Both the position numbers and the translations under genes were made by a program. The notes below the pieces were generated by a model that searched no databases, was not told where the DNA came from, and saw only the letters and a list, made by a program, of their open reading frames with translations. A DNA stretch of 64,000 nucleotides, from contig NZ_CANMIJ010000001.1 of assembly GCF_947497915.1 (NCBI RefSeq), positions 925,611 to 989,610 of the forward strand, given 5' to 3'. Source of the DNA: an uncultured Erythrobacter sp. (GTDB taxonomy: Bacteria; Pseudomonadota; Alphaproteobacteria; Sphingomonadales; Sphingomonadaceae). Of the stretch, positions 2,543 through 33,673 are shown one piece after another (position 1 is the stretch's first letter; every line of letters starts with the position of its first letter).

Positions 2543-4425
2543 TGCAGCGGAATACATGGCTGGCAAGCGCAGCAGTGCTGGGCATCATCGGTGCTACCGG
2601 CGGCATGCTTGCTGGGGGTTTTGCGAACGCACAAGACGCACCGGAATCGCTCTTGCCACCGGGCTTTGACGATCCTGCGCCCGCGCCGACGCCAACTGCC
2701 GCCCCAGCAGCTTTGCCGACAGCGGCGCCTGCCACGGCCCCGACGGGCGCGCCGCCTGCCAATCCAGGTGTGCCGACGGCGCCTGTACCGGGCGTTCTGC
2801 CGCCTGTGCCAACTTTGTCGGGCGAAGACCTGCAGGGACTGCCTACGCTGGAGGAGCTTGAAGAGCTTACCCCGGATGAACTGGATGACCGGCTTGGCCT
2901 GAAACCCAAATTCGATATTCCGCCCGCTGCGCGCCGTTCGCTTGCGCAAGTGGGTGTGCTTTCGCCGGAAGAAGGTGGCTTGCCGACAGGCTCACTGGGT
3001 AAGCAACCGGAAAACCTCGTGCGGGCTGTATTGGCGGGCACCCAAAAACCGATGGTTTCGCGCTGGGGTCACATTCTGGTGCGCCGTGCCTTGGCAAGCC
3101 GTTTGGCTGCGCCTGAAGGCATGAGTCCTGTTGAATTTGCAGCACTGCGCGCCGGCGTCCTCAACCGGATGGGCGAATTTACGGTTGCACGGGCAATCGT
3201 TCAGGATGTCGATACGGGCAACTGGAGCAAAGCGCTCACCAGTCAGGCTTTGACTGCATATGTCGGCGCGAATGATATCAGCGGTGCGTGTCCGGCGGTG
3301 CGTCTTCAAGGGTCAGAACGCGACGATCCGCAATGGGTGATGATGCAGGCTATCTGTAATGCCTATGCGGGCGAGGGCGCTCTTGCCGCATCACAGTTGG
3401 ATCGCGGAATTGAAAACGGGATTGCACCGGAAATCGATCTGCTTTTGGCTCAGCGTTATGCGGGCGCTGCGGGACGCGGTCGGCGCGCGGTGGAAATCGA
3501 GTGGGACAGTGTGGAAGACATCAATCCGTGGCGATTTGCCCTTGCCAACGCGGTGGGTGAGACGGTGCCGCAGGCGCTGTTGAACGATGTGATGGATGGC
3601 CCCTATGCTGCGTATTATGCGCAGTCGGCCTCCACTGCTCCGATGTTGTCACTGGCCAGCCGGGAGCCATGGGTTCAACAGGCAGCAAGCGGCGGCATTT
3701 TCTCCGCGCGCGCGATGGTCGATTTCTACAGTCAGGTTTACGCCGACAATGCGATTGGCGGGGATGCAGGCGATAAAGCGGCTGCTTTGCGGCAGGCTTA
3801 TGTAGGTGCGAATGCGCAAGAGCGGATCAATTCTATGCAGCAGATTTGGGGTGAAGGCGGCGATTATGCTGGCTTCGTCACCACAGCCTTCGCCGCAGCG
3901 CGCATCGCGCCTTCGGAAGACTTTGCAGGCTATTCGGGTGATTTGATCACGTCGATGCTTTCCGCCGGGCTTGACCGGGATGCCGCCGCATGGCGCGGTA
4001 TGATCGCGGAGGGCAGTCTGGGCTGGGCATTGATCGCGGTGGGTACAGCCGGCGATAGCAGAGCGAGCGCAGACGCGCTTGAAACCTTCACTGGCAATGA
4101 TGACAGCACGGATCAGCGCGCCTCTGGATTCCTGGTTGCGGGACTGGCCGGTCTTGATCGCCTGAGCGCAGCCGATCTTGAGGCGATGCAAGGCGAGCTT
4201 GATATCGATTTGAGCCGCGCAACGCGCTGGACGCAGATGATTGGTAAAGCCGCCGATGCCGATAACCGCACTCTTGTGACGTTGCTTGCGGGGCTGGGGA
4301 TGCAAGGGACAGATTGGTCGCAAATGACCCCGCTGCACCTCTATCACATCACCTCTGCGCTTCGCCGCGTTGGGTTGGAGGCGGAAGCACGGATGATTGC
4401 AGCAGAAGCGGTCGCGCGGGCCTGA
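2539..4425 (+). CDS. Exported, largely alpha-helical protein of unknown function with Pro/Ala-rich N-terminal linker
   Basis: 628-aa ORF with signal-peptide-like N-terminus (...GFANA|QD) and PAPAPTPTAAPAA linker; sits between aroK and xerD. Confidence 0.8.
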   Translation: MMQRNTWLASAAVLGIIGATGGMLAGGFANAQDAPESLLPPGFDDPAPAPTPTAAPAALPTAAPATAPTGAPPANPGVPTAPVPGVLPPVPTLSGEDLQGLPTLEELEELTPDELDDRLGLKPKFDIPPAARRSLAQVGVLSPEEGGLPTGSLGKQPENLVRAVLAGTQKPMVSRWGHILVRRALASRLAAPEGMSPVEFAALRAGVLNRMGEFTVARAIVQDVDTGNWSKALTSQALTAYVGANDISGACPAVRLQGSERDDPQWVMMQAICNAYAGEGALAASQLDRGIENGIAPEIDLLLAQRYAGAAGRGRRAVEIEWDSVEDINPWRFALANAVGETVPQALLNDVMDGPYAAYYAQSASTAPMLSLASREPWVQQAASGGIFSARAMVDFYSQVYADNAIGGDAGDKAAALRQAYVGANAQERINSMQQIWGEGGDYAGFVTTAFAAARIAPSEDFAGYSGDLITSMLSAGLDRDAAAWRGMIAEGSLGWALIAVGTAGDSRASADALETFTGNDDSTDQRASGFLVAGLAGLDRLSAADLEAMQGELDIDLSRATRWTQMIGKAADADNRTLVTLLAGLGMQGTDWSQMTPLHLYHITSALRRVGLEAEARMIAAEAVARA

Positions 4426-4432
4426 CGCAAAC

Positions 4433-5308
4433 GTGTCGGCAGCTGTCCAAGCCTTCCTTGAGATGCTCGCGGCAGAGCGCGGCGCAGCGCCGAACACGCT
4501 TTCTGCCTATTCCCGCGATCTGGCAGGCGCAGAGGAATGCGTTGGCGATTTGGCCAGCGCCTCGCGCGCAAAAGTTGGCACATTGGCCGGGGAATGGAGC
4601 TCGCTTGCTCCGTCAACAGTCGCGCGTAAATCATCGGCATTGCGGCAGTTTTTCGGCTTTGCTGTTGATGAGGGATGGCGCGATGACGATCCTTCGGGCG
4701 CGTTGCCCAATCCGCGCAGCAGTCGTCCGCTTCCTAAAGTGCTCTCTCACGATCAGGTCGAGGCGTTGATGTCCCGTGCGGAAATGGAAGCGGAAAGCGG
4801 AAAGCTGACTAGCGTCCGTCAGCTTGCATTGCTGGAAATGCTGTACGGATCAGGATTGCGTGCGACAGAGCTTGTCTCACTCCCGCTAAGCGCCGTTCCG
4901 CGCGATGCTCCGCTGATTACGGTAACGGGCAAGGGCGGGGTCGCCCGCATGGTGCCTGTTAGTGAAAGAGCGCGGGAAGCGTTGCAGGAATGGTTGAAAA
5001 TCCGTCCGCAAGACCCGGCTTCGCGTTTCCTGTTTCCCTCGCGCGGGGGAAAGCATCTTAGCCGCGTGCGGCTTTACCAGATGCTCAAAGAACTCGCCGC
5101 TCGCGCTGACCTTGATCCCACTGGCATCAGCCCGCACGTTTTGCGCCACGCTTTTGCAACACATTTGCTCGAAGGCGGGGCGGACTTGCGGGTTTTGCAA
5201 ACGCTGCTGGGCCATGCCGATATCGCCACGACGCAGATATACACGCATGTCGATGCTGCGCGTCTAGTTGACCTTGTGAATGCGCGCCATCCACTGGCGA
5301 GCCGTTAA
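4433..5308 (+). CDS. xerD: Site-specific tyrosine recombinase XerD
   Basis: FLEMLAAERGAAPNTLSAY N-terminus. Catalytic R (GSGLRATEL), K (TGKGG), HVLRH, LLGH and TQIY present. GTG start at 4433. The xerD-accA synteny is typical of alphaproteobacteria. Confidence 0.9.
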   Translation: MSAAVQAFLEMLAAERGAAPNTLSAYSRDLAGAEECVGDLASASRAKVGTLAGEWSSLAPSTVARKSSALRQFFGFAVDEGWRDDDPSGALPNPRSSRPLPKVLSHDQVEALMSRAEMEAESGKLTSVRQLALLEMLYGSGLRATELVSLPLSAVPRDAPLITVTGKGGVARMVPVSERAREALQEWLKIRPQDPASRFLFPSRGGKHLSRVRLYQMLKELAARADLDPTGISPHVLRHAFATHLLEGGADLRVLQTLLGHADIATTQIYTHVDAARLVDLVNARHPLASR

Positions 5309-5371: not shown

Positions 5372-6316
5372 ATGACTTCTTATCTCGATTTCGAGAAACC
5401 CGTCGCTCAACTCGAAGAGCGCATCGCCGAACTGCGTAGCGCCAGCGAGAGTGATGAGGTTGATATTTCCAGTGAGATCGCGCGGCTCGAAACTAAGAGC
5501 GCCGATCTTCTTGCCAGCACCTATGCCTCGCTAACGCCGTGGCAGAAAACGCAGGTTGCCCGCCATCCGGAGCGTCCGCATTTCCGCGATTATGTAGAGC
5601 ATGCGTTCGAGGAATTTCTGCCGCTGGGCGGAGACCGGTATTTCGGTGATGACCTCGCGATTATGGGCGGCTTTGCAAAGCTGAATGGTCGGCGCGTGAT
5701 GTTGATTGGCCATGAAAAAGGCAACGACACTCAAAGCCGGATCAAGCACAATTTTGGGATGGGTAAGCCAGAGGGATATCGCAAAGCGATCCGCCTGATG
5801 GAAATGGCGGGGCGTTTCGGCCTTCCAGTGGTGACTTTGGTCGATACGTCTGGTGCGTTCCCTGGTATCGAAGCCGAGGAGCGCGGTCAGGCGGAGGCGA
5901 TTGCCCGCTCGACAGAGGCATGCCTCGCGCTGCCGGTGCCGATGGTTTCTGTCATCGTCGGTGAAGGTGGATCGGGCGGTGCGGTGGCGTTGGCCAGCGC
6001 AGAACGCGTCCTGATGCTCGAACATTCGATCTATTCGGTGATTTCGCCCGAAGGCTGCGCCTCGATTCTTTGGCGCACATCGGAAAAAGCGTCGGAGGCC
6101 GCACAGGCCATGAAGGTGACGGCGCAGCATCTCAAGCGGCTGAAAGTGATCGACCGGATTGTTAAAGAACCCTCCGGCGGTGCGCACCGCGATCCGACGG
6201 CGATGGCAGCCAATCTTGGCAAAGCTCTGAGCGAGGAAATCGACGCGCTTGCTGACTTGCCGAGTGAAACATTGATCCGCTCACGCGAGGAACGGTTTCT
6301 CCAACTCGGCGGCTAA
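5372..6316 (+). CDS. accA: Acetyl-CoA carboxylase carboxyltransferase subunit alpha
   Basis: [10 protein letters not shown] start, [29 protein letters not shown] and [14 protein letters not shown] motifs. Confidence 0.97.
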
Positions 6317-6452
6317 CACGCTGCCAAATTTTACAGTTTGTCATTTGGGTCAAAGGGTTGCCGATAGGCTTCGCTTGCCCGATAGTCATAGCATAAACAC
6401 GGCGGGATAGGCGCGGGGTGGAACGCGGCGCCTGCTTGCAAGGAGAGAGCAA

Positions 6453-7934
6453 ATGCCGAAATTATCACGCAAATTCCTGATCGCGGGCACCGCTCCGCTG
6501 GCTCTGGCGCTTAGCGGATGTATGGGGGGAGGCGGAGCAGTTCCGTCGGCATCAACACCGATTACGCAGCAAGAGGCGCAGCAAGGCGCGAAATATCACC
6601 CGCAGTTCTTGCAGGAATTCGGCGGCGCGATGACTGGGCCTCAGGCGGCCTATGTCGAGCAGATTGGTAAGAATATCGCGGTGCAATCGGGCCTCGGCAA
6701 TGCGCGCGATAGCTTCACGGTAAGCTTGCTCAACAGCCCGGTGAACAACGCTTTCGCGATTCCCGGCGGCTATATCTATTCCACACGTCAGCTCGTTTCG
6801 TTGATGAATAACGAAGCCGAGCTTGCAGGCGTCTTGGGACATGAAGTCGGTCACGTCGCCGCGCGCCATTCCCAGCGCCGGCAACAGGCCGCGCAGCGCA
6901 ATTCGCTGCTTGGCGGTCTTGGAGCGATTTTGTCGGGTGTTGTGCTTGGTGATTCCGGTATCGGTCAAACCCTCTCACGCGGATTTTTGCAGGGATCACA
7001 GCTGCTTACACTGCGGTTCTCGCGCAAACAGGAATTGGAGGCTGATGATCTCGGGATCCTTTATCTCCAACGTGCGGGCTACGATCCGAAGGCCATGAGC
7101 ACAGTTTTGGCAAGCCTTGCTGCGCAAAATTCGCTCGACGCACGGCTTCAGGGACGGGGTAATGCGACCGCACCGGAATGGGCGTCAACACACCCTGATC
7201 CGGCAAGCCGTGTCCGCACCGCTCTTGCGAAAACAGAAGGTCTCGCCAGCGGTGTGACCAATCGTGACACGTTCCTCTCCCGAATTGACGGAATGGTTTA
7301 CGGCGATGATCCAAAGCAAGGGGTGATCGAAGGCAGTCAGTTCATTCATCCCGAATTGATGCTGTCATTCACCGCGCCGCAGGGTTTTTACATGGTCAAT
7401 AGCACCAGGGCGGTGAGCGTGAACGGCCAAAGCGGAAAGGGACAGCTGACGGTTGCGCCGTACAACGGCGATCTCGACAGCTATATTCGTCAGCAATTCT
7501 CGAAATTGGGCGGCGAAAAGAACAATCTTGCGCCGTCCAACATTCAGAGAACCACTGTTAACGGGATTCGCGCGGCCTATGGCACCGCGCGGGTTAACAA
7601 TGGCAGCAGTCAGGTTGATGTGGTGGTCTTTGCCTATGAGTTTTCGAACAATCAGGCTTATCATTTCCAAACAATTACGCCTGCCGGACGGTCAAATCCG
7701 TTTACATCGATGTTCCAATCAATGCGGCGCATCTCTCAGCGGGAAGCCAGCGCTGTGATTCCGCGGCGAGTCGATGTGGTAACGGTGCAGCGCGGTGACA
7801 CCGTCAGCTCGCTCGCGCGCCGGATGGCATATGATTCGGGGCAGGTTGATCGCTTCCGCGTGCTCAACGCGATGGGATCCAGCGACACTTTGCGCGCAGG
7901 CCAGAAAGTTAAACTGGTCGTTCGCGGGCGCTGA
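6453..7934 (+). CDS. M48 family zinc metalloprotease lipoprotein with C-terminal LysM domain
   Basis: Lipobox ALSGC, NAFAIPGG, HEVGH zinc motif, FSRKQELEAD, STHP, and C-terminal VTVQRGDTVSSLA...LRAGQKVKLV (LysM). Confidence 0.9.
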   Translation: MPKLSRKFLIAGTAPLALALSGCMGGGGAVPSASTPITQQEAQQGAKYHPQFLQEFGGAMTGPQAAYVEQIGKNIAVQSGLGNARDSFTVSLLNSPVNNAFAIPGGYIYSTRQLVSLMNNEAELAGVLGHEVGHVAARHSQRRQQAAQRNSLLGGLGAILSGVVLGDSGIGQTLSRGFLQGSQLLTLRFSRKQELEADDLGILYLQRAGYDPKAMSTVLASLAAQNSLDARLQGRGNATAPEWASTHPDPASRVRTALAKTEGLASGVTNRDTFLSRIDGMVYGDDPKQGVIEGSQFIHPELMLSFTAPQGFYMVNSTRAVSVNGQSGKGQLTVAPYNGDLDSYIRQQFSKLGGEKNNLAPSNIQRTTVNGIRAAYGTARVNNGSSQVDVVVFAYEFSNNQAYHFQTITPAGRSNPFTSMFQSMRRISQREASAVIPRRVDVVTVQRGDTVSSLARRMAYDSGQVDRFRVLNAMGSSDTLRAGQKVKLVVRGR

Positions 7935-31268: not shown

Positions 31269-31317
31269 AAAATGGCTCCCCGAGTTGGATTCGAACCAAC
31301 GACCAAGTGATTAACAG
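31269..31317 (-). repeat. att-site direct repeat: 49-bp copy of the tRNA-Asn 3' half
   Basis: AAAATGGCTCCCCGAGTTGGATTCGAACCAACGACCAAGTGATTAACAG is identical to 32518-32566; identity ends exactly at the anticodon loop. Confidence 0.95.
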
Positions 31318-31513
31318 AGAGTCTGGTCGCTTATATGAAACAGCGGGTTATGCTGACAATATGATTCACGCGCATATGGTCTTCGGCAGCAAGGTTTTGA
31401 AACTAAGCGAGAAAAGTTGAACCCGTCCAGCGAACGGATTTTAGCGACTAGAAAAGCGACTAATCCACAACCCTCAGTTGCAGGATTTCTGATGTGTGAT
31501 TCAATGGAATCAT

Positions 31514-31879
31514 ATGAAAAGAGAAATCAAATTTAGGGTTTGGGACAAAGCTTCAAATCAGATGTTAGATAACGATTGCCTGCTTCATGGTGATTATGGG
31601 GAGTGGCCACGCATAGTTTTTGCATTAAATGGCGAAGACGCGGACTACACCCTTATGCAGTTCACCGGCCTGACCGACAAGAACGGCACTGAGATTTATG
31701 AAGGCGACGTTGTAGAGCTGCACGGTCAGCTATTTGCTGCCGTTTATGATGCACCACAGTTTTGGCTTTCAAAAGATGGTTCTCCCGACGGACTAGAAGA
31801 CACTTTCTACTCAGACAGTGGGATGCTCTACGAGGTTGTCGGAAACGTCTACGAGAACCCGGAATTACTTAGAACATAA
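31514..31879 (+). CDS. YopX family phage protein
   Basis: MKREIKFRVWD...LMQFTGLTDKNGTEIYEGDVV...EVVGNVYENPELL is the characteristic YopX signature. Confidence 0.9.
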   Translation: MKREIKFRVWDKASNQMLDNDCLLHGDYGEWPRIVFALNGEDADYTLMQFTGLTDKNGTEIYEGDVVELHGQLFAAVYDAPQFWLSKDGSPDGLEDTFYSDSGMLYEVVGNVYENPELLRT

Positions 31880-31936
31880 AAACAAGCCCCGATTTTTGGT
31901 TTATCGGGCCCGTACTGCTTGTGACTGTAACAGGTT

Positions 31937-32140
31937 TTATGTGAGGCTCTTTTCGCCTGCAGCGATTCGAGCTTCGACTTCCATAATCAGGATGTCATCT
32001 TCAACCTGCTCCAACAAAGATTTGTCGTCAATCACCTGACTGTCTGTGACTTCAAACGATGAGTCTTCTTTTTGTTCTGTACATGAAGTGAGCGTGAACG
32101 CGCTGCCGATGATCGCAGCCGCAACTTTGATGTTACGCAT
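31937..32140 (-). CDS. Small putative lipoprotein (element cargo)
   Basis: MRNIKVAAAIIGSAFTLTS|C lipobox and acidic mature part; 67 aa from ATG 32140. Confidence 0.6.
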   Translation of the reverse strand: MRNIKVAAAIIGSAFTLTSCTEQKEDSSFEVTDSQVIDDKSLLEQVEDDILIMEVEARIAAGEKSLT

Positions 32141-32521
32141 ATTGCTTCCACTGTTGGGCACCATTGGTGCAGTTGAAAAACGAAGCTATTCTTTATCTTA
32201 CGACCAACCAGCAATAATGCAATGTCAATACTCTATCCGCTCTTTTGGAGAAGATCGCAGAGAATGTGGTTCCTATCCTTCCTGAGTGGACTGAGCAAAT
32301 CAGCAACTCCAAAAAGGGCAATCTTAGACCGCTTCATTGTCACAGGTAGGTCCGGAGCTCTCTACCCACCAGACATGGTTGCCATCCGTCCCCATGTCAA
32401 AGGTGAAATAAGCACAGTGGGATATGATGATTTTGCGGCAGAGAGGTCTGTCCCGCCCCTGAATTCCAGCGACTAAAATGAGACTAGGCTCACTCTTTTC
32501 CTCGCTAAGCCTCTGAAAAAA

Positions 32522-32596
32522 TGGCTCCCCGAGTTGGATTCGAACCAACGACCAAGTGATTAACAGTCACCTACTCTACCGCTGAGCTATCGGGGA
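32522..32596 (-). tRNA. tRNA-Asn(GTT)
   Basis: Reverse complement TCCCCGA-TAGCTCAGCGGTAGAGT-AGGTGA-CTGTTAA-TCACT-TGGTC-GTTGGTTCGAATCCAAC-TCGGGGA-GCCA. Confidence 0.97.
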
Positions 32597-32680: not shown

Positions 32681-33499
32681 TCAATCCGTGGCAAATTGTT
32701 CGGAGACAATCCGTTCTTCCAGCGACTGGCCGGGATCAAACAGCAATTCTAGCTCCGTATCACGCGCAATTTCCAGCGTAACTTCGGAAATATCGCGCAA
32801 TTCTTTCTGATCGGCCACGGCAGCGACAGGACGCTTTTCGTGATCCAGTACGCGTAGCTTGATGCGCATCCGGTCCGGCAGGATCGCTCCGCGCCAGCGT
32901 CGGGGCCGGAACGGGCTGATTGGGGTTAGTGCGAGCAGCTCACTGTCCAGCGGCAGAATCGGGCCATTGGCGGAGAAATTATAGGCGGTTGAGCCAGCGG
33001 GCGTGGAAACCAGCACACCGTCGCCCACCAATTCTTTAATCCGTACGCGGCTGCCAACGGTAATCTCGATTTTCGCCGTCTGGCGCGTCTCACGAAGGAG
33101 GGAGACTTCGTTGATTGCACAGAGGGTCTGCGTCTCGCCCCCTTGCAACACCGCCTCCATACGCAGCGGCGCGATGCTTTTGCGGTGCGCCTTTGCCAAA
33201 CGGTTCGCGATAACGGCGCGCTTGTCATAGCGGTTCATGAGAAAGCCGACTGTGCCCAGATTCATCCCGTAGGCAGGAATGATCCGGCCGGCATCCAGCA
33301 TCGCATGGAGTGTCTGCAGCATGAAGCCATCACCGCCTAGAACAACGGCAACGTCCGCTTCCTCAATCGGAATCCATTCAGTCTGGCCGAGCAGCGCCTG
33401 ATACGCCTCCTGCGCGCGCGGCGTGTCTGATGCCAGCAGAGCCATTTTGGCGAACGGATTGGTAAGCCCGTTGGTCGCGCCATTGGTCGCAGTTGTCAT
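32681..33499 (-). CDS. NAD kinase
   Basis: VLGGDGFML, GMNLGTVGFLMN, AINEV, GDGVLVSTPAGSTAYNFSANGP motifs. Start uncertain (33499 or the downstream MALLAS). Confidence 0.93.
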   Translation of the reverse strand: MTTATNGATNGLTNPFAKMALLASDTPRAQEAYQALLGQTEWIPIEEADVAVVLGGDGFMLQTLHAMLDAGRIIPAYGMNLGTVGFLMNRYDKRAVIANRLAKAHRKSIAPLRMEAVLQGGETQTLCAINEVSLLRETRQTAKIEITVGSRVRIKELVGDGVLVSTPAGSTAYNFSANGPILPLDSELLALTPISPFRPRRWRGAILPDRMRIKLRVLDHEKRPVAAVADQKELRDISEVTLEIARDTELELLFDPGQSLEERIVSEQFATD

Positions 33500-33673
33500 A
33501 AGCCTCGTCCGGCTCCCCTCAATCATAGTCCCGCTGCCTGTCATACAGGCCCTATCAGCCGCCGCGATCCCAAACGGCCCCGAAAACCTATAGTCACTTA
33601 TCCTGATGTTCCAATTTCGGTCGGATTGCAATTGATGTGAGTATTCGCAAAACTATGCCACTATAGCGAACCT

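Follow-up and report, generated by a model that had tools for sequence, protein, structure and literature searches.

Elements that carry no genes for integration or transfer but keep both attL and attR are known as CIMEs (PMC5704250, PMC6323972). The gene-carrying ('classical') CIMEs of S. salivarius span 1.2-13 kb, and in S. agalactiae 215 CIMEs have been counted at a single tRNA-Lys(CTT) (PMC7563491). Decayed elements of this kind, att-flanked, without an integrase and 1.2-13 kb long, are common (PMC7563491, PMC5704250, PMC6323972). [quoted passage not shown] Here we describe a very small insertion in a tRNA-Asn gene of an uncultured Erythrobacter, and compare it with these systems.

The window, by which we mean the whole 64-kb stretch of DNA that was analysed, contains three tRNA genes according to ARAGORN. 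One of them is the integration target, an intact and now reconstituted tRNA-Asn(GTT) at 32522-32596 on the minus strand (Rfam RF00005, 69.4 bits); many Erythrobacter relatives carry the same tRNA-Asn at 100% identity. A repeat search identifies a direct repeat of 49 nt with 100% identity, at 31269-31317 and 32518-32566, the two copies being spaced by 1,249 bp. In the orientation of the tRNA, the repeat starts at tRNA position 31, which is the first base of the 7-nt anticodon loop CTGTTAA, and it ends 4 nt (TTTT) past the CCA, with the identity breaking off sharply on both sides. A 49-nt perfect match is impossible by chance, and apart from this repeat the 64-kb window has no further partial copy of any of the three tRNAs. 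The duplication of the tRNA-Asn 3' half had been recognised in an earlier reading of the sequence alone (here called the sequence-only reading) as perfect and as having its edge at the anticodon loop, and this proves to be exact. That reading had also stated that tyrosine integrases which target tRNA genes often cross over in the anticodon loop; the block seen here matches the anticodon-loop sublocation pattern as the preprint describes it.

The two copies have different surroundings. The proximal, attL-like copy (32518-32566, minus strand) lies within the functional tRNA gene, and this gene runs into element DNA (GCCA-TTTTTTCAGAGG...). The element now provides the 3' 45 nt of the functional tRNA-Asn gene, together with the TTTT. 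[quoted passage not shown] Between the repeats is an interior of exactly 1,200 bp (31318-32517) with a GC content of 0.463. No other 1,200-bp window in the 64 kb goes as low; their mean is 0.576 (sd 0.027), about 4 sd higher. The interior is therefore compositionally foreign.

By means of the flanking NAD kinase (NF003406), 80 Erythrobacteraceae loci were fetched. The order NadK, tRNA-Asn, TauE-family membrane protein (PF01925), SecA is kept in roughly fifty of the 80. The closest locus is that of Erythrobacter crassostreae WH158, with 94% amino acid identity in NadK and approximately 80% nucleotide identity in the flanks. Here the TauE stop codon is only about 30 bp past the tRNA-Asn, and the downstream flank reads GCCA-TTTTCTTACA..., which is the flank found in the window beside the distal repeat copy. 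Both repeat copies of the window align to the one tRNA 3' half of this locus, while the interior has no counterpart there. Among the 78 relatives whose locus showed the tRNA-Asn, none has DNA or translated similarity to the interior. Given that the interior is absent from 78 of 78 loci, and that E. crassostreae WH158 has a clean empty site, the clear conclusion is that this is an integrase-type, site-specific insertion into tRNA-Asn, in which the element supplied a new 3' part for the tRNA and pushed the resident one aside. The interior is thus not vertically inherited DNA shared by all relatives, a possibility that had been raised at the outset. The sequence-only reading had also proposed to look at the tRNA-Asn of relatives for larger elements with the same ends, or for cassettes of the same size with different cargo; the 80 loci show no full-length prophage with these ends and no sister element. 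As an observation on the flank itself, the mechanically called NadK ORF of the window (32681-33631, minus strand, 316 aa) has a TTG start and begins about 45-60 residues before the family profile and before most relatives; the true start is probably further downstream.

The interior contains two credible ORFs, both intact, and no conjugation or mobilisation genes; Rfam finds nothing on the element except the tRNA. The description of the interior as merely AT-richer DNA was thus right as to composition and needs to be extended as to content. The first gene (31514-31879, plus strand, 121 aa) belongs to the YopX family, matching Pfam PF09643 at 2.1e-20 over profile positions 1-127 of 128, phrog_98 at 7e-35 and TIGR01671 at 3.7e-15. 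Its structure matches are PDB 2qyz (2.9e-16) as well as 2p84 and 2ox7, all structural-genomics entries. The family is typical of phages and of unknown function. Among 5.8 billion proteins no homologue comes closer than 40-45% identity, and in INPHARED the DNA of the element matches only in stretches of about 60 bp, all of them inside phage YopX genes. The phage-family gene content characteristic of a prophage remnant is present through YopX, by its PF09643, TIGR01671 and phrog_98 matches.

The second gene (31937-32140, minus strand, 67 aa), identified from the ORF list and by reading the sequence, encodes a small lipoprotein. It has a signal peptide, MRNIKVAAAIIGSAFTLTSC, with the lipobox L-T-S-C, and a GGAAG ribosome-binding site 6 nt upstream. 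Among 5.8 billion proteins it has no homologue but itself, and its profile matches are weak and of the signal-peptide type. Its role may be in lysogenic conversion or exclusion. An intergenic hairpin at 31880-31936 (fold -16.1 kcal/mol, z = -1.98) separates the two genes, which are transcribed towards each other; on the minus strand it reads GCCCGAT...ATCGGGGC followed by TTGTTTTT. The U-tract is on the strand of the lipoprotein, and the hairpin is likely to be the terminator of that gene. YopX and the lipoprotein are probably expressed accessory genes.

Searches of Pfam, PHROGs and NCBIfam give no tyrosine or serine recombinase match for any ORF or frame of the element. For comparison, two IMG/VR provirus contigs (L084 and L082) have an integrase next to an identical tRNA-Asn, within about 120 bp of it. 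The L084 integrase is P4-like, with Arm-DNA-bind_3, Phage_int_M and Phage_integrase domains, and the L082 integrase has only Phage_integrase. Since these integrases lie so close to the tRNA-Asn, the absence of an integrase from the element is best understood as a loss rather than as a different layout. A tblastn search with both integrases gave no match in the 64-kb window. Run over all six translations of the element, an HMM built from the C-termini of six P4-like integrases gave only non-significant alignments, with negative bit scores and a best E of 0.26. It does pick up a distant XerD-like recombinase of the window at 2e-6, and the test therefore has power. This gene, of the XerD/XerC type (4397-5305, plus strand; NF001399, 5.8e-92), is the sole recombinase in the 64 kb. 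It lies 26 kb from the element, and its role is presumably the housekeeping one at dif. Neither the element nor the 64-kb window contains a cognate tyrosine integrase of the matching subfamily, and no integrase targeting tRNA-Asn is found within the window. The earlier statement that the roughly 1,200 bp of AT-richer DNA hold no integrase ORF agrees with this, no integrase ORF or remnant being detected.

One candidate remnant was considered and rejected. ORF84 (32222-32476, 84 aa) is a mechanically called ORF without a real homologue, whose C-terminus, PHVKGEISTVGYDDFAAER, resembles by eye the H-x2-G-x6-Y...ER motif of the P4-like integrases of the relatives. BLASTP gave E values of at least 1.4, the HMM of C-termini aligned only elsewhere, and Pfam, PHROGs and NCBIfam gave nothing. 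A phmmer search of 1.84 billion proteins returned a single match at E 2e-27, to a 953-aa tandem-repeat protein (P0122; …IKPIIPPSVTSVGYNNKKTEISI…). This is an artefact of summing over repeats, the score being inflated by about 14 of them. The case shows that it is worth checking how many matched stretches lie behind a low E-value.

The gap between tRNA-Asn and TauE has been used by other integrases. Among the relatives its length varies between about 30 bp and more than 10 kb, and in three of them it contains islands of 3.5-7 kb, whose ends are marked by repeats, 14-21 bp long, of the extreme tRNA-Asn 3' end (L046:10994-14480, L036:10956-18051 and L068:4782-11936). Each has a P4-like integrase at its distal (attR) end; that of L046 is truncated, without the central domain, and this island also contains a ParA-like ATPase. 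A fourth locus, L029, which is from a MAG, has two P4-like integrase genes in series downstream of tRNA-Asn (1465-2739 and 5404-6588), which suggests tandem accretion of islands. Among the relatives, P4-like integrases were found in these four loci only. Other gap ORFs beside the tRNA in relatives were read by eye only; none looked integrase-like, and several looked like ordinary cargo (an ABC-F ATPase, MFS and SulP transporters, a phosphatase, an HsdR-N-like protein and an acyltransferase). The sublocation of the relatives' islands is not that of the 49-bp anticodon-loop block, and the insertion in the window was therefore made by a different type of integrase. The tRNA-Asn-to-TauE gap is thus an integration hotspot of the Erythrobacteraceae, where integrases of at least two types, differing in their sublocation, have acted.

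Taken together, we consider, with a probability of roughly 0.7, that the element is what decay has left of a temperate phage or of a phage-like integrative element, and that it has kept attL and attR and is CIME-like. The label of phage-derived and CIME-like is given because the only classifiable gene, YopX, is of phage type. In the proposed mechanism, a tyrosine integrase would have recombined the attP of the element with tRNA-Asn, the attP sharing with the tRNA an identical stretch of 49 bp, which begins at the anticodon loop and ends 4 nt beyond the CCA. The crossover was probably within the anticodon loop. Integration would have rebuilt the tRNA-Asn from element DNA and moved the original 3' half to the far end. 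A later internal deletion would then have taken the integrase and nearly everything else, leaving both att sites with their arms and two intact accessory genes, those for YopX and the small lipoprotein. We infer this deletion rather than observe it, since no parent prophage with these ends was found. By the logic that applies to CIMEs, an element without an integrase would be a passive passenger, able to recombine only if a compatible integrase arrives in trans.

Two features of the locus do not sit easily with a deletion relic. There is no pseudogene or integrase fragment that would mark a deletion scar, and the two intact ORFs, with a motif repeated in both arms, would fit a maintained functional unit equally well. 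The most serious rival, although rather unlikely, is a non-autonomous miniature integrative element, maintained as such and consisting of an attP of about 250 bp and two cargo genes. Its excision and integration would depend in trans on a tyrosine integrase from a helper phage or island, whether resident elsewhere in the genome or infecting the cell. In its favour, neither att copy carries a mismatch, no debris of pseudogenes is seen, and the two non-coding arms share a motif. The left arm (31318-31513, 196 bp) contains two exact copies of AGCGACTA, at 31443-31450 and 31455-31462, which are 12 bp apart, and weaker AGCGA variants at about 31405 and 31429. The right non-coding stretch (32141-32517, 377 bp) has one exact copy at 32468-32475, followed after 11 bp by a degenerate version, TGAGACTA, at 32479-32486, and by an inverted degenerate copy at about 32488-32509; the motifs on this side are 10-50 bp from the core. 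The 8-mer has four copies in the 64 kb, where 0.82 would be expected in the whole window, and three of the four fall within the 549 bp of the arms. When the arms were shuffled with their dinucleotides preserved, only 17 of 3000 shuffles produced an 8-mer common to both arms in three or more copies. The presence of motifs near both ends, as claimed in the sequence-only reading, is therefore real. On one side of the core the motifs lie at a distance of 31-50 bp, on the opposite side at 126-145 bp, so that the outermost sites span about 244 bp across the core. This is the size of a classical attP such as that of lambda. We read the AGCGACTA sites as candidate arm-type sites for integrase binding.

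The arms have some further features. In the left arm, upstream of YopX, there is a promoter-like site at 31353-31380 and a hairpin at 31420-31440, which looks like a terminator with its T-tract on the minus strand, where there is no gene to terminate. On the right, directly downstream of the tRNA-Asn 3' end, the segment 32466-32509 forms an imperfect palindrome of the AGCGA(C/G)-type motif. This could be a protein-binding site, or else a terminator for the tRNA, replacing the displaced native downstream region.

Against a miniature element that is actively spreading, both genes are orphans and no second copy or sister element was found. The cargo proteins are singletons among 5.8 billion proteins, and neither a second copy nor a sister element appears among those proteins, in IMG/VR or in the JGI metagenomes; shared arms are likewise absent from IMG/VR, the JGI metagenomes and the loci of the relatives. 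Furthermore, the only integrase in the 64-kb window is the XerD-like one, from a family without an arm-binding domain. In IMG/VR, five contigs contain the 45-nt core, all of them with a full tRNA and unrelated flanks. A pattern for the arm motifs has 41 matches there, roughly what chance would give; no match is similar beyond the pattern or has a tRNA core close by. A 20-mer across the junction has no match. Two core-plus-arm patterns have no matches in the JGI metagenomes. Just one sequencing run has words in common with the region; it comes from a plastic metagenome with a diverged Erythrobacter and gives no coverage of the element. Nor was any full-length prophage with the same ends found in the 80 Erythrobacteraceae loci, IMG/VR, INPHARED or the pattern scans of the JGI metagenomes, a result that covers these collections and not all of nature. 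As an aside, two of the IMG/VR contigs have a complete, identical tRNA-Asn in mid-contig with identical flanks (L081:5562-5606 and L083:8964-9008); this could be a phage-encoded tRNA, or host DNA within the provirus call.

The deletion relic is favoured because nothing related exists elsewhere in these collections, no integrase is nearby, and decay is the documented route. The sequence-only reading had offered a choice between a prophage or ICE reduced by deletion and a mini-cassette mobilised in trans. The first of these is favoured, indirectly, in that nothing related was found, and the second is disfavoured. A functional mini-cassette that depends on the integrase of a helper phage would be a phage-side counterpart of CIMEs and microCIMEs, and the smallest gene-carrying integrative hitchhiker described in Alphaproteobacteria; we regard this as unlikely. 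If the element could be mobilised in trans, it would be a compact natural attP cassette that reveals the att and arm sites of an Erythrobacter phage integrase, which would be useful rather than surprising.

A further alternative is that the element was never a large prophage. It would have arisen by a single integration of a small, attP-bearing circle, produced by aberrant phage recombination, with the integrase supplied by an infection that did not lead to lysogeny. This would lead to the same end state, with attL and attR both intact, no genes but those near the att sites, and no scar of a deletion, and on present data it is indistinguishable from deletion. It is nevertheless quite unlikely, in that it calls for an extra rare event and has no direct evidence, whereas the decay of full elements is the documented route (PMC5704250, PMC7563491). 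An origin without any integrase, either as an assembly artefact or by segmental duplication of the tRNA 3' half around unrelated DNA, is hardly credible, since one edge of the repeat is the anticodon loop, the outer edge is the ancestral flank seen in E. crassostreae WH158, the interior is unique, compositionally foreign and phage-related, and misassembly at a 49-bp repeat cannot yield 1.2 kb of unique sequence.

The perfect repeat has been taken to suggest recent acquisition or continued mobility. However, 49 bp escape substitution with a probability of 0.61 when neutral divergence is 1%, of 0.38 when it is 2% and of 0.09 when it is 5%. The repeat therefore does not date the insertion and is only weak evidence for recency, and for continued mobility there is no cognate integrase in the 64 kb. 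The insertion may have occurred after the split from the nearest comparison genome, which is about 20% diverged, or it may have been lost in that lineage.

The value of the finding is mostly one of annotation. Two small foreign genes, for YopX and an ORFan lipoprotein, can be assigned to the element, as can the working 3' half of the tRNA-Asn and the region downstream of it. The displaced fragment at 31269-31317 should not be labelled as a tRNA gene.

Finally, we compare the element with known systems. Two candidates do not fit. In IMEX, which are Xer-dependent and dif-flanked, the flanks would be dif-like XerC/D sites, whereas here they are halves of tRNA-Asn. For an IS or MITE, no terminal inverted repeats were found, and the duplication is 49 bp of tRNA. 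Phage satellites (PICI, P4-like, PICMI) are similar in being small, phage-related and helper-dependent, with a specific att site, but they are several kb long and encode an integrase together with replication or hijacking genes, none of which is present in the element. Integrations of the anticodon-loop sublocation have the same geometry, with a block that begins at tRNA position 31 and reaches the 3' end and an element that restores the 3' part of the tRNA; the difference is that the integrase of this element is missing.

Cryptic or defective prophage remnants at tRNA genes have phage genes, a tRNA att duplication and low GC, and have lost their integrase and structural modules. The element shares all of these features, having a phage gene, a duplicated tRNA att site, low GC and neither integrase nor structural modules. 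It differs from such remnants in being unusually small, with an interior of 1.2 kb, and in having two perfect att copies and two intact ORFs with no pseudogenes.

The resemblance to the CIMEs of streptococcal ICEs and IMEs is also close. The element has intact attL and attR at the 3' end of its target gene, no integrase, excisionase or transfer genes, and few cargo genes. Its size is at the lower end of the published range. Like a CIME, it is interpreted as the product of decay from a larger integrative element, and it would need a compatible integrase in order to move. On the other hand, its sole classifiable gene is of phage type, which makes descent from a prophage more probable than descent from an ICE or IME. 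In addition, the host is an alphaproteobacterium and the element stands alone rather than in tandem with a helper. It would behave as a CIME does, although it may not be one in the sense of ICE or IME ancestry. The element is in this sense an ordinary case of a known genomic scar, unusual only in combining a tiny size with a complete att architecture and two intact orphan genes.
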